Shown here piece by piece: positions 21,699-55,358 of a stretch of 64,000 nucleotides of DNA. The notes under the pieces were generated by a model. That model ran no database searches, was not told the origin of the DNA, and saw only the letters and a program-made list of their open reading frames with translations. Source of the DNA: a phage. A program made the translations under genes and the position numbers. The DNA lies in the sequence record NC_042307.1; one strand, written 5' to 3'. Position 1 is the first letter of the stretch. Every line of letters begins with the position of its first letter.

Positions 21699-21883
21699 TA
21701 GCTCTCCTGTTTGGTAGTTAGTAGTGGATTTGAACCACTGTAGTCGCTCCGTATGAAGGAGGTGCATAACCACTCTGCCAACTAACTATTATGTTTTACT
21801 AGACTAAGTAAGTATTCTTTGTACTCTTTAGACCAATTAGCTTTTTTAAACTTTCCTGGACGCATAGTCTTAATTCCTAAATT

Positions 21884-21960
21884 TGGTACTCCGGGAGGGA
21901 TTTAAACCCCCGATCTCTCGGTTATCAGCCGAGTGCTTTAGATCGCTAAGCTACCGAAGT
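21884..21960 (-). tRNA. tRNA-Ile (anticodon GAU)
   Basis: Hand-folded cloverleaf; CCA encoded. Confidence 0.6.
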
Positions 21961-21975
21961 ATTAAAATATTTACA

Positions 21976-22266
21976 TCACACACTTTCTAAGTAAGAAGTA
22001 TAATGGAATTTAGTTTCTCCAGTCTTATCTACTTCTACCTCAGTTCGTGGTACTTGACGAACTACACCATGAATCATCTTATAGCGAATGCCTTTAGCTG
22101 GTTCATGATCTTTTGGAAATACTTGTTTAACCGTTACTACTTTATATCCTTCACGCGGTGTTAACACTACTACTTGATCACCCTCTTTGATTTTCCAGGA
22201 GGGTGGAAATTCATAGGTATATCTTTGACCACCAGTTTGGAATACTACAGAAAGATAACGTTTCAT
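21976..22266 (-). CDS. hypothetical protein (96 aa)
   Basis: ORF with upstream promoter-like sequence. Confidence 0.4.
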   Translation of the reverse strand: MKRYLSVVFQTGGQRYTYEFPPSWKIKEGDQVVVLTPREGYKVVTVKQVFPKDHEPAKGIRYKMIHGVVRQVPRTEVEVDKTGETKFHYTSYLESV

Positions 22267-22340
22267 TTGGTTTCCCTCTCATTAATTTATATAATTATTA
22301 TAACAAGAAATAAGAGAGAATGCAAATGAATTTTTAAATT

Positions 22341-22415
22341 TGGTGCTCCCACCAGGAATCGAACCCGGTTCAGATGCTTACAAGGCAACTGCATCGCCAG
22401 CAATGCTTTAGGAGC
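22341..22415 (-). tRNA. tRNA-Thr (anticodon UGU), one mismatch in anticodon stem
   Basis: Hand-folded; CCA encoded. Confidence 0.5.
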
Positions 22416-22435
22416 GATGATCCCGTTATTTCAAC

Positions 22436-22600
22436 GGGATTTCTTTTTCAATAACAGGAGACTTATCAGTCATAACTGTCATAGCCAACTGCTGAAGAAA
22501 CTCGAAAGTTAGCTTTAAACGTTCTTCACCTAATTCAATCTCAACGTATTTCTTTTGCTTGTCAACCTTTAATTTTAGGTTATCAGCCATCTTCTGATTC
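22436..22600 (-). CDS. small hypothetical protein (54 aa, below track cutoff)
   Basis: ATG 22600 to TAA 22436; 'MADNLKLKVDKQKKYVEIEL...'. Confidence 0.3.
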
Positions 22601-22804
22601 TCGTTGCTCGGCTACTGCTAGCCAGTCTGGTAAAAGAAACTTAGTACGAAACTCTTCATAAGATTCTTCTGGATAAAAGCTAAAACCTCCTTTCTCATCA
22701 TTCAAGATAACAGAGCCGTCAGTTTGTTCATACGCTCGATATGTTTCTCCAATAATGATAACTCGCTTATCAGTACTTTTATTACGAAACTCAAAAACGT
22801 GCAT
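22583..22804 (-). CDS. hypothetical protein (73 aa)
   Basis: ORF. Confidence 0.35.
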   Translation of the reverse strand: MHVFEFRNKSTDKRVIIIGETYRAYEQTDGSVILNDEKGGFSFYPEESYEEFRTKFLLPDWLAVAEQRESEDG

Positions 22805-22818
22805 TGTGTTTCCTTATT

Positions 22819-22893
22819 TGGTGCGGGATACGAGAGTCGAACTCGTGTTTACTGGTTGGAAGCCAGTTATTCTAGCCACTGAACTAATCACGC
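22819..22893 (-). tRNA. tRNA-Gly (anticodon UCC)
   Basis: Hand-folded; CCA encoded. Confidence 0.6.
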
Positions 22894-22900
22894 ATTAATT

Positions 22901-22984
22901 TGGCTGGAGAAGGAGGATTCGAACCTACGTACCTTCCGGTTATGAGCCGGGTGCTCATACCATATGGGCTTGAGAACCAGAATT
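22901..22984 (-). tRNA. tRNA-like element, anticodon loop 'CUCAUAA' (CAU), acceptor stem noncanonical
   Basis: T-arm and CCA present; 5' acceptor does not pair. Confidence 0.3.
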
Positions 22985-23073
22985 TGGCGGAAGAAGTGGG
23001 AATCGAACCCACAAGGCTATATTTCAAACCGACAGATTAGCAATCTGCTGCAAAACCGTTCTGCTATTTTTCC
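22985..23073 (-). tRNA. tRNA-Ser (anticodon GCU), class II with long variable arm
   Basis: Hand-folded; CCA encoded. Confidence 0.55.
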
Positions 23074-23093
23074 GGATTTATAAATATATTATA

Positions 23094-23612
23094 TTAGAAA
23101 TTTAGCTTCATGGCAAGAAAATTTTTCAAGTTTTCGGTAGACATCTCATCCACATCTATAGGAGAAACAAACCCATTTAATTGTTTAGCAAACTTTTCGC
23201 CAGCAGGATCATTATCCCCAACAGCTACCAATTTAAAAGGTAGTAATTTCAATTGCTTTAATAGCGGTTTTCCTGGAGAAGAACCCAACATTGCTAGAGC
23301 AGGATACCCAGCATTATGTAATGCTACAGCCTTAAATACAGATTCAGCAATTAATACTACTTTTTCATCCCCATTGAGAGTTTCTAGTCCCCATACACAC
23401 TGTGTAGTAGAATAAGTAAAATATCTAGCTTCAAAGGGGCACTTACCATGACCTTTTGGAGCAGAAGGATTATAAGTCTGATAGCCTCTCAACATTCCAG
23501 AGAAGTCATACAATGGGACTGTTAGCCATCCTTCTGGGCTTAACCAGCAGTGATATTTATCTGTATCAAACCCTCTAGATAAGAGATGTTCTGTTAGTTC
23601 ATCAATAGTCAT
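23094..23612 (-). CDS. Toprim-like domain protein
   Basis: 'VVLIAESVFKAVA...VAVGDNDPAGEKFA'; ATG 23612 with GAGAGG RBS. Confidence 0.4.
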   Translation of the reverse strand: MTIDELTEHLLSRGFDTDKYHCWLSPEGWLTVPLYDFSGMLRGYQTYNPSAPKGHGKCPFEARYFTYSTTQCVWGLETLNGDEKVVLIAESVFKAVALHNAGYPALAMLGSSPGKPLLKQLKLLPFKLVAVGDNDPAGEKFAKQLNGFVSPIDVDEMSTENLKNFLAMKLNF

Positions 23613-23831
23613 ACTAGATTCCTCTCTCAAATTTATAAATATATTATGCAGAGAATTTAGCATTCAAGCAATTGAATTTTTTAACTTTTTAGAGGAAAAT
23701 CACAGGATGCTTAAGGGTAGCAGGTAAGTGGGTAGACCCCAAAATTGTTATCCCCACTTGATTTTCAATGTGATATAGTGTAAAGTATTTGTCATAGCTG
23801 AGTGACCAAAGAGACACACTTATCCTCTACC

Positions 23832-23873
23832 TTAAAACAGAAAAGCCCTGCGCTCTCCAGGGAACACAGGGCT
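23832..23873 (-). terminator. Rho-independent terminator
   Basis: Stem AGCCCTG/CAGGGCT, 'tttctgtttt' in minus sense. Confidence 0.55.
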
Positions 23874-23897
23874 TACTTCGAATATTACGTGTGGGAA

Positions 23898-24845
23898 TTA
23901 CTTGTTACGCATATCCATAATCATCTGGCCATCGTAACCAGTGCCAACTACTGTTTGAGGTACACCGCCTTGATATTTCTGAGCACGAATCATTTCAACT
24001 TCTAGTTGTTTCCAGCGAATCATCTCAGGAGTAATAGTACGTTGCAGAGCGGCGTTAGCTTCGGCTTCCTTCTTAGCTGCGTACAGTTTAGCATCTGCAT
24101 CACGTTCGTTTGCAATAGCTTGGTTGTTACGAGCTTCACGATCTGCTTCTGCTTGTTTAACCTTCTGCTGTGCTTCTTGTTCAACACGAGCCAACTCAGC
24201 TTTCGCAGCATTAACTTGTTCCTCACGAACTTTGGTATTCTGTACCTGTTCCATGATTACAGGCGGCAAAGTAATATCCTGAAGGAACACTTGCTTAACT
24301 GTGTAACCATAAGGGCGTGCATACTCTTCAACTTCCTGTTGAATTGCGGTTTGTAATTGAGCCTGGATTTTAGCATCAAACAAATCTTGTGCTTTAGGAA
24401 CAGACTTACCGAACTCACGAATAGTGGACAGTAATTTTTCAGTTACATATTTGTCTAATGCTTGATCCTGGGTACCTGCGTTAATACGGTTAATCGGTGC
24501 CTTAGAACCATCAAACTGCAACATAACAGTCAGGTCAACAGTGGATTTAAACTTATCCTGACTAGGAACCTGAAGTTTATCTAATTTTACAGCAATGTCT
24601 TTTGTACTAAAAGTATCGAAAGATGCAAATGGGTTTACAAGATGAAAACCAGGTAATACAGGATTAGGGTCTACTTTACCCAGAAATGTTTGGGTTTTAA
24701 CCGTACCATCAGAAACAATAGTATATGAATTAAAAGCTAGGATTAAACCTGCTAAACCAACTACAGCACCAATACCCCAACGTTTAATAGTGCGGATTAC
24801 TTTTTGCTCAGAAGTCAGTTCTTTCATATTTTTAGTATTAAACAT
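23898..24845 (-). CDS. SPFH/band-7 (prohibitin/HflC-like) membrane protein
   Basis: N-terminal TM, long Ala/Glu/Gln-rich coiled coil; AAGGA RBS. Confidence 0.55.
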   Translation of the reverse strand: MFNTKNMKELTSEQKVIRTIKRWGIGAVVGLAGLILAFNSYTIVSDGTVKTQTFLGKVDPNPVLPGFHLVNPFASFDTFSTKDIAVKLDKLQVPSQDKFKSTVDLTVMLQFDGSKAPINRINAGTQDQALDKYVTEKLLSTIREFGKSVPKAQDLFDAKIQAQLQTAIQQEVEEYARPYGYTVKQVFLQDITLPPVIMEQVQNTKVREEQVNAAKAELARVEQEAQQKVKQAEADREARNNQAIANERDADAKLYAAKKEAEANAALQRTITPEMIRWKQLEVEMIRAQKYQGGVPQTVVGTGYDGQMIMDMRNK

Positions 24846-24879
24846 ATATTTCCTTTGTTTTAGTTACAGTTAATAAAAT

Positions 24880-24954
24880 TGGCCGAGGTGACAGGATTCG
24901 AACCTGCATAAAGGAATTTAGAAGACTCCTGCCTCTCCCTTAGACTACACCCCG
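24880..24954 (-). tRNA. tRNA-Arg (anticodon UCU)
   Basis: Hand-folded; CCA encoded. Confidence 0.55.
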
Positions 24955-49792: not shown

Positions 49793-50251
49793 ATGATAAC
49801 ACAGGAAGAGGTTAGAGAGGCTTTTGAGTATGATCCTGAAACAGGCCATCTTAAATGGAAGAAAACAAGACAGAAGAGTCTAGTAGGTAAGTTTGCCGGT
49901 GGTAAACATAAAGGGTATATAAGAATAGGGTTTAAGCGTAGGCACTGGGGAGAACATCAGCTGGTATTCTTATATCATAAGGGGTACATACCAGAAGAGA
50001 TAGACCACAAAAACAGGATTAAAGATTGCAACTTTATAGAGAATTTAGAAGACTCCAATAGATCTAAGCAAATGCACAATATTAATGTACGTAAAGACAA
50101 TAAGTTGGGTGAGCCTAATATCTACATGAGGGGCGATAAATATTGTGTGCTAATGCAGAAAGGATCTATTCGTAAGTACCAGCAGTGCAATACTATAGAA
50201 GAGGCTAAAAAAGTTAGGGCTAATTTTAAGTCCGAACTCTATCCAAATTAA
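49793..50251 (+). CDS. HNH homing endonuclease
   Basis: 'EEIDHKNRIKDCNFIENL'. Confidence 0.55.
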   Translation: MITQEEVREAFEYDPETGHLKWKKTRQKSLVGKFAGGKHKGYIRIGFKRRHWGEHQLVFLYHKGYIPEEIDHKNRIKDCNFIENLEDSNRSKQMHNINVRKDNKLGEPNIYMRGDKYCVLMQKGSIRKYQQCNTIEEAKKVRANFKSELYPN

Positions 50252-51024: not shown

Positions 51025-51268
51025 ACTAACTGATTTACTTAAAGATGGGGAAGTAAAAACACTATATCGTAGAAGCTGGGATAACGATAATAACGGCTTA
51101 GTGTTACTAACTTTAGATGCTGACTCGGATGTAGCTACTCAGCATACCTGGGTAGCCGGTAACTATCCATATAGCGAGGTTGTTTCATTAACAGTATGCG
51201 AAGCTATTGCAGATGATTGGGAGGTTGCCAGCATCGAGGATATGCTCGCTGTTGGCCTGGTGGAGTAA
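51017..51268 (+). CDS. hypothetical protein (GTG start)
   Basis: AAGGAAAA RBS before GTG 51017. Confidence 0.35.
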   Translation: MSRLTDLLKDGEVKTLYRRSWDNDNNGLVLLTLDADSDVATQHTWVAGNYPYSEVVSLTVCEAIADDWEVASIEDMLAVGLVE

Positions 51269-51371
51269 CTACTTAAAAATTTCAGTTGCTTAATCCTACA
51301 ATTCTTGATATAATATTCTCATAGTTTGAAAGAACTATTCTGTTTAATTCTTAATTAAGGAAATATAAAAT

Positions 51372-51782
51372 ATGACTACTCCAACTCAGTGGACTGATGA
51401 ACTGTTCGAAAAAATGTCTTCCGAATACGTTGCTCGTATGGAGCAATTCCCAGAGGATGAACGTCCGGGTGTTAGCATGGAAATTGTTAGCGAAATTGCC
51501 CAGGAAAATGGTGTAACTCCGAACGGTTTTCGTATGAAGCTGACTAAAGCAGGTTTGTATATTAAGAAAGCTGCTGGTTCTACTTCTAAATCTAGCGCAT
51601 CTACTGGAGAAAAAGCTTCCGGTGGTTCTCGTACCTCCAAAGCTCAAGCCCATGCCGACCTTCGCGCAGCATTCTCTGACGCTGGCTTAGCACCAGATTT
51701 TATGGATGATGCAATTATCGACAAACTGACTGGTAAAGCGGCCGCTCATCTGGCAGAAGCAATTCGAGCTATCACTAAGTAA
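51372..51782 (+). CDS. hypothetical protein (136 aa)
   Basis: ORF with AAGGAAAT RBS. Confidence 0.5.
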   Translation: MTTPTQWTDELFEKMSSEYVARMEQFPEDERPGVSMEIVSEIAQENGVTPNGFRMKLTKAGLYIKKAAGSTSKSSASTGEKASGGSRTSKAQAHADLRAAFSDAGLAPDFMDDAIIDKLTGKAAAHLAEAIRAITK

Positions 51783-52166: not shown

Positions 52167-52475
52167 ATGAGCGAACAGGTAAATCAAAACTATGAAGGAC
52201 ACGTTGATGACCAGTCCATCATACTTTGGGAGAAGGAGGGGGAACAAGTAAGATTAACAGTATCTGAATTTCGTGGGAATCTATACATGGGTATTCGTTA
52301 CTGGCTTCTTGATATTAATGATGAATGGTTTCCAACGAAATCTGGCTTCTCTTTTCCTTACACCCTAGAAACAACATCACAGCTTTTCTATGCGTTTACA
52401 CAGATTCTTAGCGAATCTGAGGTTTTACATGAAGTACAGAAACGAGCTGAAGAACTAAAAGCCAAGAATGCCTAG
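52167..52475 (+). CDS. hypothetical protein, possibly PC4/YdbC-like ssDNA-binding
   Basis: Weak motif recall only. Confidence 0.4.
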   Translation: MSEQVNQNYEGHVDDQSIILWEKEGEQVRLTVSEFRGNLYMGIRYWLLDINDEWFPTKSGFSFPYTLETTSQLFYAFTQILSESEVLHEVQKRAEELKAKNA

Positions 52476-52492
52476 TTCTTGGCTTTTTCTTT
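52461..52492 (+). terminator. Rho-independent terminator
   Basis: Stem GCCAAGAA/TTCTTGGC + TTTTTCTTT. Confidence 0.55.
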
Positions 52493-52502
52493 ATAAATGT
52501 AT

Positions 52503-52531
52503 TTGCTTTCAACTCAGTTTTGTTATATAAT
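52503..52531 (+). promoter_or_regulatory. Sigma70-like promoter (-35 TTGCTT, -10 TATAAT)
   Basis: 17-bp spacer. Confidence 0.5.
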
Positions 52532-52562
52532 ATTTATATAAATTAATGAGAGATATAAATAA

Positions 52563-53534
52563 ATGACTAATGTAAAAGAATTTATTAAACGCTGTCAAGA
52601 AGCATATTATCAAGGCATGTCTTTAATCTCAGATGAAGAATATGATCGCCTGGTAAAACGCTTCCCGTTAGAGGAAGAGATCGGGCCTAAGGGTGATATT
52701 CCACATCTATATCGTATGTATTCTTTACAGAAAGTTTACTATAACCGCGGTGATAAACCACCATTCAATCCGTTAGGTCAAGTAGAAACTGATAAGTTAG
52801 ATGGTTGTGCAATTTCTCTGCTATATATTAATGGCGAATTTGTTCAAGCACTAACTCGTGGTAATGGTATTCTGGGGAATGATGTCACAAGCAACGTAAG
52901 ATTGCTGAACATTCCTAAAAAGATTTCCCAAAAAGTACCTACTCAAATCACTGGTGAAGTTCTAATTACAAAAGAAGTAGAAAATAAACGTAACTTTGCC
53001 TCTGGTGCTATTAACCTCAAAGATAGCGATGATTTCGTACAACGTATCGGGGAAGGTGGTTTAATCTTCGTTGCATATGGTATCCAGTGTTCTGCTGAAT
53101 CTGTAGGTATTACAGAAGCATATTTAAAAGATATGCTTTGGCTAGAGAATGAGAACTTCTTAACAGTTGTTAATGTGCGTTCCTTCTTTAAATGGATTCC
53201 GACGGACGGTAAAGTTGTTCGTATTAATGACAACAACAAATTCTTCCGCGAAGGCTGGACTAATAAATTTCCTCGTGGAGCATTCGCTGTTAAAGAGGAT
53301 GAAGAAGGCGAGATTACAACTCTTACTAAAGTTGAATGGCAGGTAGGGGCTTCTGGTAAAGTAACTCCAGTTGGTTATTTCGAACCGGTAATTATTGATG
53401 ATGCTACAATTGTTAAGGCGACTCTTAATAACGTTGATTATATTAACTCTCTCGATCTAGAGATCGGTTGCCAGATTCGAGTGATTCGTGCTGGTGGTGT
53501 AATCCCATGCATAGTAGAGCGAGTATACGATTAA
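52563..53534 (+). CDS. lig: NAD-dependent DNA ligase, N-terminal adenylation part
   Basis: 'KLDGCA' KxDG motif. Confidence 0.65.
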   Translation: MTNVKEFIKRCQEAYYQGMSLISDEEYDRLVKRFPLEEEIGPKGDIPHLYRMYSLQKVYYNRGDKPPFNPLGQVETDKLDGCAISLLYINGEFVQALTRGNGILGNDVTSNVRLLNIPKKISQKVPTQITGEVLITKEVENKRNFASGAINLKDSDDFVQRIGEGGLIFVAYGIQCSAESVGITEAYLKDMLWLENENFLTVVNVRSFFKWIPTDGKVVRINDNNKFFREGWTNKFPRGAFAVKEDEEGEITTLTKVEWQVGASGKVTPVGYFEPVIIDDATIVKATLNNVDYINSLDLEIGCQIRVIRAGGVIPCIVERVYD

Positions 53535-53677
53535 TACATAACCCTTTGCTACCCATCTACCATATCGGAATTATAAAGTGGTTATTGACATTTTCGCCGC
53601 TTAGGTATATACTATTATCATTCAGTTGAGGGATAGAAAGTTATGGCGAGGGTAAGCAAAGTTAGTTAAAATTGTAG

Positions 53678-53706
53678 TTGCTAAATGCTTAAATACTTGC
53701 TATAAT
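53678..53706 (+). promoter_or_regulatory. Sigma70-like promoter between the two ligase ORFs
   Basis: -35 TTGCTA, 17 bp, -10 TATAAT. Confidence 0.45.
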
Positions 53707-53733
53707 ATTTATATAAATTGATAAGGAAGAAAT

Positions 53734-54516
53734 TTGATGAAAATCGAAATTCCAACACAATGTCCCTCTTGTGGTTCTAAGCTAGATCTTGTCAACGGAC
53801 AATTATTCTGTCGTAATAAGTCCAACTGTCCAGCGCAATCAAGTAAGTTAATTGAGAACTTCTGTACAAAAATGAAGTTAAAGGGCTTTGGCCCAAAAAC
53901 TATTGAGAAGCTGGAGCTGACGAAGATTTCAGAACTATTTTACCTAACCGAAGAAGATTTGGTTAGAGCCGTGGGTAGCAAGGTTGCCGCTAAGTTAATT
54001 AGCGAATTAAATACTAAAGTTCGCGGAGACATTGACTTTGGTTCAGTTCTCGGTTCTTTAGGAATCACTCTAATTGGAGAGGTTGCAGCAAAGAAATTAT
54101 CCCAAAATTGCACTAGCTTCCATGATGTGAAGGCTGACGGCAAGGCTGGAGAAAATTACAAAGCCTGGCTAAATTCCCCACAAGGCAAGGATGTTATTGA
54201 ACTACCGTGGAAATTTTCAACTGGTATTAAGGGCACTAAAGCTGACGTCATCATTACAGATGAATTAGTTGCCCAGCCAAATGGAATCGCGGTATGTATT
54301 ACCGGATCTTTGCAAGATTTTGCAAATAGAACGGATGCAACAAACTATTTAGAAAGTCTAGGGTATACGGTTAAGAAATCCGTTACCAAAGACGTCAAAT
54401 ACCTAATCTGTGAGGATGAATCGAAGCGTTCCTCCTCATCTTATAAGAAAGCCGAAACGAATGGGATAGAAATCCTGTCGATTAAAGAACTATTGGAGAA
54501 AAATAATAATGTCTAA
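53734..54516 (+). CDS. lig: NAD-dependent DNA ligase, C-terminal part (Zn finger, HhH, BRCT-like)
   Basis: 'CPSCGSKL...C..KSNC'. Confidence 0.6.
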   Translation: MMKIEIPTQCPSCGSKLDLVNGQLFCRNKSNCPAQSSKLIENFCTKMKLKGFGPKTIEKLELTKISELFYLTEEDLVRAVGSKVAAKLISELNTKVRGDIDFGSVLGSLGITLIGEVAAKKLSQNCTSFHDVKADGKAGENYKAWLNSPQGKDVIELPWKFSTGIKGTKADVIITDELVAQPNGIAVCITGSLQDFANRTDATNYLESLGYTVKKSVTKDVKYLICEDESKRSSSSYKKAETNGIEILSIKELLEKNNNV

Positions 54517-55276
54517 ACTGAACTGGAACGTAGAAGGTGTAACCGAGTCTCTGAAAGCAAAAGCCACTGCTCTGGGTGTTGCTGTAATCTCTCAAGAACA
54601 AGTAGCTGCTATCGCTGCTGAACTGGCTGCTGAAACTGGCAAAGATGTTACTGCTCGCTCTGTTGGCTCTAAGCTGCGTAAAGAAGGTTTTGAAGTACAA
54701 AAAGCTAACGAAGTACAGAAATCCCCGTGGACTCCTGAGCAGGAAGCTGAACTGGTTGATTTCCTGAACGCTCATGCTGGTCAGTATACCTATGCTGAAA
54801 TCGCTGCTGCTGTAGCTGGTGGTCAGTTCGGTGCTAAACAGGTACAGGGTAAGATCCTGAGTCTGGAAATGACCGCTTCTGTTAAACCAACTGAAAAAGC
54901 TGCTGCTGTTCGTTCCTTCACTCCGGATGAAGAAACTGATTTTGTTAATCAGGTTGTTGCTGGAGCTACTATTGAAGCTATCGCTGCTCACTTCGGTCGC
55001 AATATTAAGCAGATCCGTGGTAAAGCTCTGAGCCTGCTTCGTGAAGGTCGTATCGCCGCTATGCCGGTACAGGAAACTTCAAGTGCTAAAACTCGTGAAG
55101 ATCTGTTAGAAGGTCTGGATCTGGCTAACATGACTGTTGCTGAGATCGCTGAGAAAACTGGTAAGTCTGAGCGCGGTGTTAAATCTATGCTGTCTCGTCG
55201 TGGTCTGGTTGCTAAGGACTATGATGGTGCCGCTAAGCGTGCTAAACTGGATGCAAAAGCTGCGGCTGCTGAATAA
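54509..55276 (+). CDS. protein with three internal about 70-aa repeats, host-like codon usage
   Basis: Repeats starting 'TPEQEAELVDF', 'TPDEETDFVNQ', 'TREDLLEGLDL'. Confidence 0.5.
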   Translation: MSKLNWNVEGVTESLKAKATALGVAVISQEQVAAIAAELAAETGKDVTARSVGSKLRKEGFEVQKANEVQKSPWTPEQEAELVDFLNAHAGQYTYAEIAAAVAGGQFGAKQVQGKILSLEMTASVKPTEKAAAVRSFTPDEETDFVNQVVAGATIEAIAAHFGRNIKQIRGKALSLLREGRIAAMPVQETSSAKTREDLLEGLDLANMTVAEIAEKTGKSERGVKSMLSRRGLVAKDYDGAAKRAKLDAKAAAAE

Positions 55277-55292
55277 TCTGGTAAATTAAACC

Positions 55293-55326
55293 TAAGGGGA
55301 GGGGGCTATGCTCCTTCCCCTTTTTG
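55293..55326 (+). terminator. Rho-independent terminator (imperfect G/C stem + T5)
   Basis: 'AAGGGGAGGGGGC...GCTCCTTCCCCTTTTT'. Confidence 0.5.
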
Positions 55327-55358
55327 CATTTAGAAGGCACGAAAGCGTGCAAAGGAGA

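Follow-up and report, generated by a model that had tools for sequence, protein, structure and literature searches.

Separate ligA and ligB genes for the NAD+-dependent DNA ligase of a T5-like phage, and the conserved promoter motifs between them

The NAD+-dependent DNA ligases of bacteria (LigA) are single polypeptides; that of E. coli (PDB 2OWO) is a chain of 671 residues in which the domains follow one another in the order Ia, adenylation (NTase), OB, Zn finger, HhH, and BRCT. LigN truncated to its Ia, NTase, and OB domains retains self-adenylation (PMC1684257); the same paper cites the T5 genome report for the splitting of the T5 ligase. In the T5 records (AY692264, AY543070, and AY587007), the two genes appear as T5p114 and T5p115 (dnlj1 and dnlj2) and are labeled "subunit A/B", as the preliminary description of the locus studied here had stated; the records differ in the start assigned to ligB, which is either TTG or ATG. 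Moreover, the ligase of Providencia phage vB_PreS_PR1 has been deposited as two chains (PDB 9hu3/9i5i), chain A being named "DNA ligase (NAD(+))" and chain B "DNA ligase subunit B". A literature search for a paper on these entries, on split DNA ligase, or on the PR1 ligase retrieved nothing relevant, and no biochemical data on the ligase of T5 or of the phage studied here were found in the searchable literature. The split of the T5-like ligase is thus already known, being annotated, cited, and structurally solved; the preliminary description fairly called it mechanistically unusual, but it is not new. The following analysis goes beyond the annotation with regard to the conservation of promoter positions, the low variation of the gap between the two genes, the placement of cargo only upstream of the promoters, and the existence of fused relatives.

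The window, i.e., the whole stretch of phage DNA analyzed (64,000 nucleotides, NC_042307.1), is 97.8% identical to phage T5 over 2.3 kb of this region, with point differences only; the LigA and LigB proteins share 99.7% and 96.9% identity with those of T5, respectively, and the genes, their order, and their neighbors are the same. The two ligase ORFs lie where they had been preliminarily placed, both on the plus strand: ligA (52563-53534) codes for a protein of 323 aa with domain Ia and the NTase and OB domains, and ligB (53737-54516), annotated as NAD-dependent DNA ligase subunit B, codes for a protein of 259 aa with the Zn finger, HhH, and BRCT domains. The domain order of E. coli LigA is thus that of LigA plus LigB, and identity with it is about 30%. 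The phage ligase is about 90 residues shorter overall, the deletions falling in the Ia-NTase linker, in the NTase domain, and in one HhH region.

The alignment of both ORFs with bacterial LigA revealed that the catalytic residues and the Zn-binding cysteines match those of E. coli. In LigA, Pfam recognized DNA_ligase_aden (PF01653, 2.2e-23) and DNA_ligase_OB (PF03120, 3.8e-22, residues 252-321); domain Ia spans residues 1 to about 35, and the C-terminus lies three to five residues past the OB domain. The KLDGCA motif noticed in the preliminary description is present in the ORF ending at 53534, with the nucleophilic lysine at K78 (codon 52794-52796). The NTase domain retains the lysine of motif I (KxDG) together with motifs III, IV, and V, K78/D80/G81, E132, D215, and K244 aligning with K115/D117/G118, E173, D285, and K314 of E. 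coli; R99 and R143 are further conserved catalytic residues. Two E. coli residues, R208 and K290, are replaced by N and R in the T5-like clade, and the region of R277 is deleted; the same holds for the fused relatives discussed below. As for domain Ia, the E. coli residues that we take to be needed for the reaction with NAD+ are Y22, H23, D32, Y35, and D36; four out of five are kept in the phage protein (Y15, D24, Y27, and D28), H23 being replaced by Y16.

In LigB, the C4 Zn finger (C9/C12/C25/C31) aligned with C408/C411/C426/C432 of E. coli, the HhH region aligned with residues 402-529 of 2OWO (7e-11), with a weak match to Pfam HHH_2, and a BRCT domain was found at residues 183-254 (PF00533, 5.7e-8), with the TGSL motif conserved. 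The second ORF had been preliminarily described as starting at 53734; a TTG is indeed found there and would yield a protein of 260 aa, but the ATG at 53737 is the more likely start. It lies 7 nt downstream of a Shine-Dalgarno sequence (AAGGAAG, 53723-53729), and chain 9hu3_B begins with MKIQIPT, matching the ATG start. The spacer therefore measures 202 bp to the ATG (53535..53736) or 199 bp to the TTG.

The locus belongs to a conserved run of genes on one strand (PC4-like gene, ligA, ligB, D5, and DnaB-type helicase), which is found in Vibrio phages as well. Downstream, the gene for a D5-type HTH protein (54509..55276, plus strand) shares 8 nt with the ligB stop (ATGTCTAA) and would be co-transcribed with ligB; a strong terminator-like hairpin (55294..55322, plus strand; 13 pairs, 8 of them G-C, and a T run), located where the HASG4 annotation places a terminator, would close this ligB-D5 transcription unit. 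Upstream, a terminator-like hairpin of 13 pairs with a T run (52457..52487, plus strand), which AY587007 lists as a putative rho-independent terminator, follows the PC4/p15-like gene; since it closes that gene, a new transcript is predicted to begin at ligA. A putative ligA promoter (TTGCTT-17-TATAAT, 52503..52531, plus strand) was read from the sequence, at a place where a putative early promoter is marked in the T5 records; it fell below the threshold of our scan because its -35 element matches the consensus at only three of six positions.

As had been supposed, the separation of ligA and ligB is no error but a real, family-wide arrangement in the T5-like phages (Demerecviridae): it was seen in all relatives examined, including those with as little as 40% protein identity. 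Both ORFs are present in 429 near-full-length DNA matches and in three independently sequenced T5 genomes, and 962 phage records contain LigB; genus by genus, its numbers are close to those of LigA. Among the 120 best LigA homologues, 119 are 313-337 aa long, the remaining one being partial (240 aa). The cut falls in the linker between the OB domain and the Zn finger, at about residue 399 of E. coli LigA, and occupies the same alignment column in T5-like phages, Providencia PR1, and Vibrio phage Gary. The window fits the T5 type, with a LigA of about 310-340 aa stopping just past the OB fold and a LigB of about 250-260 aa starting seven to eight residues ahead of the first Zn cysteine. Both halves are under purifying selection (dN/dS against close relatives of 0.015-0.11 for ligA and of 0.06-0.35 for ligB), LigB evolving faster than LigA. 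The two genes lie in different frames, and the ligase domains are not all on one polypeptide.

The spacer has a GC content of 31% and stops in all frames; its plus strand contains no ORF of at least 40 aa, except for a chance one overlapping the end of ligA. A single promoter had been noted in it; a promoter motif is indeed present, but there are two in tandem. The upstream one, P-K28b (TTGACA-17-TATACT, 53585..53613, plus strand), matches the consensus at 11 of 12 positions, and the T5 annotation maps to 53565-53639; the downstream one, P-K28a (TTGCTA-17-TATAAT with the extended -10 TGcTATAAT, 53678..53706, plus strand), matches at 10 of 12, with the T5 annotation at 53658-53732. They are the two best matches within the scanned region. 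The number of consensus matches in this AT-rich region does not exceed chance (five found against 6.6 expected from shuffles); thus, the promoter call is based on position, conservation, and annotation. A search for literature on PK28a/PK28b gave unrelated papers only, so that the experimental support consists of the GenBank annotation and of work on T5 promoters reportedly carried out in the 1980s.

The -10 element and the initial transcribed sequence of the putative ligA promoter are identical to those of P-K28a. They belong to a 25-nt repeat with an exact 19-nt core (TATAATATTTATATAAATT), one copy of which (52526..52550, plus strand) covers the -10 element and the early transcribed region before ligA, while the other (53701..53725, plus strand; 92% identity to the first) precedes ligB. 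Exact copies number two in the 64 kb, before ligA and before ligB, and AY587007 labels them as copies 4 and 5 of "Repeat b".

The surroundings of the gap promoters show very low diversity (pi of 0.001-0.009 versus 0.03-0.15 in ligA). The spacer, which is identical to that of T5 at 202/202 positions, differs from that of most close relatives at zero or one position out of 202 bp, the number rising to as many as 10 for the most divergent one; in the same relatives, the dS of the flanking genes is 0.04-0.24. Among the seven distant relatives examined, an equivalent of P-K28a was found in all seven at -58 to -60 (about -59) from the ligB ATG, and an equivalent of P-K28b in six at -145 to -155 (about -152); the seventh, with a gap of 101 bp, keeps the downstream promoter only.

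According to these data, we assign a probability of about 0.85 to the reading in which T5-like phages possess a two-subunit NAD+-dependent ligase, interrupted in the flexible linker that joins the OB fold to the Zn finger, with subunits that associate non-covalently and are produced from separate ligA and ligB-D5 units. A phage LigA of about 560-580 aa would have been cut at this linker, fission being the probable direction. LigA (Ia, NTase, and OB) would react with NAD+ and bear the adenylate on K78; LigB (Zn finger, HhH, and BRCT) would represent the DNA-binding half, with which a one-piece LigA closes its clamp on the nick. The proteins would be translated apart and, in the phage of the window, presumably associate into an active enzyme. 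As for expression, ligA would have its own promoter, placed after the terminator, and ligB would come first in another early unit, ligB-D5, transcribed from P-K28b and P-K28a and ended by the hairpin at 55294-55322; for the use of these tandem promoters, the T5 annotation and the conservation of the motifs argue. Since there is no terminator between ligA and ligB, read-through can add to the expression of the latter, and the identity of the -10 and initial transcribed sequences of the two genes fits a coordinated early expression.

A wider role of the gap may be considered. LigB would be expressed from the tandem early promoters, its gene being the first of the ligB-D5 unit, and this arrangement keeps its position in phages as far apart as those of E. 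coli and of Vibrio; the dosage or timing of LigB could therefore be set separately from those of LigA. It is conceivable, albeit doubtful, that the gap is an ancient border between transcription units, open to cargo and maintained by family-wide selection, and that the split perhaps derived from a mobile element of the type found in Salmonella phage SP3. If this were true, the separate setting of LigB could amount to a regulatory switch on the ligase, or could give LigB a second role together with D5.

Cargo is indeed found in the gap, which ranges from 101 to 1114 bp among the relatives. In SP3, a GIY-YIG ORF starts on the ligA stop codon, and the 215 nt of ligA beside it are 27% diverged, versus about 2% for the remaining gene, a flank that resembles a co-conversion tract. 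A NADAR gene occupies the gap of another relative (L034), and the gaps of Vibrio phages (443-1114 bp) contain whole ORFs of unknown function. These observations speak for a mobile origin of the split: a homing endonuclease, free-standing and equipped with promoters of its own, would have broken the gene at the linker and would later have been lost from most lineages. We regard this origin, too, as improbable, since plain fission, in which a stop and a new start arise next to a promoter, accounts for the data just as well, and all insertions (the accessory GIY-YIG and NADAR genes among them) lie upstream of the conserved promoters, never in their place. Moreover, a GIY-YIG endonuclease was found in the gap of only two distinct phages (SP3 and one other) among 437 matching records, which suggests that it arrived recently and secondarily.

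As for function, it is improbable that the two halves are uncoupled, LigA being a minimal ligase that works by itself and LigB having taken another role, e.g., as a BRCT/HhH DNA-binding adaptor working with D5. ATP-dependent minimal ligases can consist of just the NTase and OB domains (PMC12133292). The placement of ligB in a separate transcription unit, translationally coupled to D5, and its higher dN/dS would also fit this view. Nevertheless, ligA and ligB co-occur nearly 1:1 throughout the family, always adjacent and in constant order, the Zn cysteines and the TGSL motif of LigB are conserved, and both PR1 chains were deposited in one PDB entry. In E. coli LigA, loss of the Zn finger or of the HhH domain is said to abolish nick sealing while self-adenylation stays, which also counts against a LigA sufficient by itself.

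The possibility that the spacer is removed or bypassed, yielding one polypeptide after all, appears very remote. Introns and homing endonucleases do occur in phages of this size, translational hopping is exemplified by T4 gene 60, and a GIY-YIG endonuclease is present in the SP3 gap; the latter is, however, free-standing, with no intron around it. A check of the spacer for intron signatures was negative: no significant Rfam family was found in 53400-53850 (best E = 3.7, a chance-level match) and the folding energy of the spacer is no better than that of shuffles (z = -0.21), so that a group I intron or another structured RNA was rejected. Intein motifs are absent because the protein alignment shows no insertion. 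A translational hop, or any other recoding from one ORF to the other, was likewise rejected, since both the frame offset (0, 1, or 2) and the gap length vary among relatives and Vibrio gaps carry whole ORFs; the AT-rich spacer is, in addition, filled by the two promoters. Lastly, although LigA of bacteria consists of one chain, it can be dismissed that the split reflects faulty sequencing or assembly, or the decay of a single ligase gene into a pseudogene, given the 429 DNA matches, the three T5 genomes, and the 962 phage records with a separate ligB, which exclude a continuous frame, together with the low dN/dS of both halves, the Shine-Dalgarno sequence and ATG of ligB, and the solved two-chain structure.

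The two-subunit ligase thus represents a natural case of an enzyme tolerating a cut at a domain linker, which might be useful for split-ligase protein engineering, and raises the question of how LigA closes its clamp around DNA with untethered halves. The comparative additions leave the classification of the ligase unchanged; the tandem promoter, the cargo site, the diverged SP3 flank, and the fused relatives could serve as starting points for a small study of evolution or regulation.

The solved ligase of Providencia phage PR1 is a close counterpart. Its chains match LigA and LigB with E values of 1.1e-103 and 8.5e-80, are about 55% identical to them when the proteins are concatenated, and share with the window the cut point and the domain content of each chain; tandem promoters are found at -154 and -58. 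It differs in that it belongs to another genus and has a spacer of 192 bp.

Compact fused ligases of 555-586 aa (P0152, P0160, P0172, P0179, and others) were found on metagenomic T5-like contigs. They share 33-40% identity with the phage ligase across both halves, their length corresponds to that of LigA plus LigB (323 + 259 = 582), and their gene order (PC4, ligase, D5-like, DnaB, and primase) is that of the window; they consist, however, of one ORF, with a linker of 4-20 residues in place of the stop, promoters, and new start of T5-like phages. Of the four fused relatives, two (L040 and L045) show the overlap of ligase and D5 genes seen in the window, and in the other two the D5-like gene begins 2-15 nt past the ligase. 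When the fused genes were scanned for an internal promoter that might have preceded the split, a promoter-like site was seen in the linker of one of the four, and in one such a site lies just inside the Zn finger. In a neighbor-joining tree, star-like and without support values, the fused forms are mostly basal, two being nested among the split ones.

A broader parallel is offered by the "genes in pieces" of other phages, i.e., the nrdA gene of Aeh1, split by mobE, and the T4 topoisomerase genes 39 and 60. There, too, the gene of an essential enzyme is divided between domains into adjacent genes, whose products reassemble, as is presumed for the window; the SP3 gap with its GIY-YIG ORF is similar. 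Unlike in those systems, the gap of the window harbors no endonuclease and holds conserved promoters, and the endonuclease is rare in the family.

The two ligase ORFs, ligA and ligB, were retrieved exactly at the positions given in the preliminary description. The former (52563-53534, plus strand) codes for a protein of 323 residues, matching the Pfam NAD-dependent ligase adenylation domain (2.2e-23) and ligase OB fold (3.8e-22) and harboring the previously noted KLDG motif, whose nucleophile lysine is K78. The latter (53737-54516, plus strand; 259 residues) gave a BRCT match (5.7e-8) and a weak HhH match on Pfam, and aligns with residues 402-529 of the one-piece E. coli LigA (PDB 2OWO; 7e-11). 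The ORF listing begins ligB at an alternative TTG (53734); the ATG at 53737 is the more likely start, because it is preceded at 7 nt by AAGGAAG and agrees with the N-terminus of the solved homologue. The two genes, whose frames differ in the window, are separated by a 202-bp gap (31% GC) with all three frames closed by stops.

The alignment to E. coli LigA, proposed as a check, showed that the phage LigA comprises the Ia, NTase and OB domains, up to about residue 399, and that LigB starts 7-8 residues N-terminal of the first zinc-finger cysteine, only a few linker residues being absent from both. In the alignment, the T5-like, Providencia phage PR1 and Vibrio phage Gary proteins are all cut at one shared column, and all the approximately 55 LigA-only clusters (50% identity) stop within a few residues of it.

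The ligase region shares 97.8% DNA identity with phage T5, the spacer being identical at 202 out of 202 positions, and DNA-level matches were retrieved from 516 phage records, 429 of them with a query coverage of 80% or more. Public entries labelled "Campylobacter phage C13" and "Listeria phage", and a partial hypothetical protein attributed to "Enterococcus faecalis" (P0012, from a 723-bp contig), also contain near-identical T5-like ligase DNA or protein; they are probably contaminated or mislabelled. The two-gene ligase is an already known feature: both subunits are listed in a 2013 paper on the T5 helicase (PMC3632103), and PDB entries 9hu3 and 9i5i embed a chain A, "DNA ligase (NAD(+))", and a chain B, "DNA ligase subunit B", matched by LigA (1.1e-103) and LigB (8.5e-80), respectively. 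Their source, according to tblastn (100% identity), is the T5-like Providencia phage vB_PreS_PR1; literature searches retrieved no paper describing these structures. A LigN truncation reduced to domain Ia plus the adenylation and OB domains still forms the enzyme-adenylate (PMC1684257). The present analysis adds to the existing annotation the gap conservation, the promoter positions, the gap cargo and the endonuclease of Salmonella phage SP3.

The best-supported reading is that of a two-subunit enzyme, in which LigA would react with NAD+ and carry AMP, LigB would provide the DNA-binding half (Zn-finger, HhH and BRCT), and the two would associate non-covalently, either by themselves or on nicked DNA. 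At the sequence level, the steps of this model are observed directly; the PR1 two-chain structure, the strict co-occurrence of the two genes and the knowledge of one-piece LigA enzymes point to the association and activity of the two proteins. According to the main rival explanation, which we consider improbable, LigB would play an independent role and LigA would work alone.

As to the split, 119 of the best 120 LigA homologues from a 5.8-billion-protein collection are 313-337 residues long and one is partial (240 residues), with identities down to 46% and from phages of Escherichia, Yersinia, Erwinia, Serratia, Pectobacterium and Vibrio. LigB homologues occur in 962 phage records, with counts per genus near those of LigA (Vibrio, 363 vs. 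381; Salmonella, 266 vs. 272; Escherichia, 129 vs. 134; Klebsiella, 87 vs. 86). In 33 viral contigs ligA lies 5' of ligB on the same strand, with a frame offset of 0, 1 or 2 among relatives; the gap is 202 bp in close relatives, with the sole exception of SP3 (L028; 794 bp), 101-801 bp in the distant ones of this set, and 443-1114 bp, with small ORFs inside, in Vibrio phages. The dN/dS values against close relatives (0.015-0.11 for ligA and 0.06-0.35 for ligB) point to purifying selection on both halves. Homologue lengths, co-occurrence, arrangement and selection thus exclude a sequencing error, a pseudogene and any recoding mechanism linking the two genes, bearing out the earlier proposal of a conserved split and, overall, its interpretation of the ligase. 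The suggested search for intron signatures in the spacer was negative, since no Rfam family was found (best E = 3.7) and its fold was no better than that of shuffled sequences (z = -0.21), which excludes an intron.

Concerning transcription, a terminator-like hairpin (52457-52487) precedes a putative ligA promoter (52503-52531; TTGCTT-17-TATAAT), and scanning the region revealed no terminator after ligA. The promoter previously recognized in the spacer is annotated in T5, but as two promoters rather than one: P-K28b and P-K28a (T5P36 and T5P37 in T5 records), mapping to 53565-53639 and 53658-53732. They contain the region's two best matches in the promoter scan, TTGACA-17-TATACT (53585-53613) and TTGCTA-17-TATAAT, whose -10 is extended (53678-53706), respectively. 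Since these promoters precede ligB, the D5 gene overlaps it by 8 nt (ATGTCTAA) and a strong terminator-like hairpin (55294-55322) lies 3' of D5, ligB would be the leading cistron of a unit shared with D5, and transcripts running on from ligA may add to its expression. The 19-nt TATAATATTTATATAAATT, spanning the -10 together with the initial transcribed region, is found without mismatches at just two places in the window, one before each ligase gene. A Shine-Dalgarno-like GAGGGA (53628-53633) lies 3' of the P-K28b -10, and an 8-codon mini-ORF (MARVSKVS, 53643-53669) begins 9 nt after it; PR1, Vibrio and other relatives have a purine-rich motif, sometimes with a mini-ORF, at the corresponding position behind their upstream promoter. 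The DnaB-type helicase gene, if started as in T5 (ATG 55308), would begin inside the loop of the 55294-55322 hairpin; a Shine-Dalgarno AAGGAG (55352-55357) precedes an in-frame ATG (55359) and TTG (55365), suggesting that the real start is downstream. Elsewhere in the window, six tRNA genes (Met, Ile, Thr, Gly, Ser and Arg) are clustered at 21712-24954 on the minus strand.

Variation across the locus is lowest in the gap, with 0-1 differences out of 202 in most close relatives and up to 10 in the most divergent (pi 0.001-0.009 vs. 0.03-0.15 for ligA); the flanking genes have a synonymous divergence of 0.04-0.24. Upstream, the region annotated as promoter P-N26 (about 51313-51412) is nearly invariant as well (pi 0.003-0.014 in 27 close relatives), so low variability seems to be shared by strong T5 promoters in general. 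In the same 27 relatives, two stretches near P-N26 (49863-50012 and 51063-51212) reach a pi of about 0.3; such hypervariability suggests that small genes have been replaced in a mosaic fashion. In the distant relatives compared (Pectobacterium-type, Providencia-type and Vibrio phages), an upstream site, TTGAC(A/G)-17-TATA(A/C)T, is found at -145 to -155 relative to the ligB ATG and a downstream one at -58 to -60, the exception being contig L035, whose 101-bp gap retains the downstream site alone. The tandem promoter is conserved in position well past DNA-level similarity.

Every gap insertion sits 3' of the ligA stop and 5' of the upstream promoter: a NADAR-domain gene (L034:3153-3809; 1.8e-31), a 60-residue ORF (L036:3634-3816), two ORFs of 134 and 186 residues in Vibrio phage Gary (L038:3469-4427), and, in SP3, a GIY-YIG endonuclease-like ORF (L028:3184-3840, equivalent to just after 53534; 218 residues, Pfam 1.1e-5), which starts on the ligA stop codon, 5' of P-K28b. 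The last 215 nt of SP3 ligA show 58 differences (27%) from its otherwise nearest relative, versus 16 (about 2%) in the first 700 nt, a pattern expected next to a homing endonuclease. The GIY-YIG gene occurs in no more than two distinct phages out of 437 matching records; it was therefore probably acquired late, rather than having caused the split. A further insertion of 272 bp (L002:1662-1934, equivalent to between 52531 and 52563), embedding a 90-residue ORF with no Pfam match, lies between the ligA promoter and ligA in the relatives HASG4, EASG3, HildyBeyeler and Tennessee.

An exhaustive search of 50% clusters retrieved compact one-piece ligases of 555-586 residues, the length of LigA plus LigB (582), sharing 36-46% identity with LigA. 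Four of them (556-566 residues) lie on metagenomic phage contigs (L040, L043, L044 and L045) with the T5-like gene order PC4-like, ligase, D5-like protein, DnaB-type helicase and primase; the D5-like protein of L040 shares 40% identity with that of the window (1e-47). These appear to be distant T5-like phages without the split, and their gene order places the event inside a conserved replication module. The basal position of most fused forms in a neighbour-joining tree suggests that the direction was fission; the tree is, however, poorly resolved, and two fused forms are nested among split forms. Compared with E. coli LigA, the phage proteins conserve K78, D80, G81, R99, E132, R143, D215 and K244, as well as four out of five residues in domain Ia and the full set of four Zn cysteines; LigA differs in having E. 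coli R208 replaced by N, K290 by R and the R277 region deleted, differences common to the fused phage relatives and, therefore, not a product of the split.
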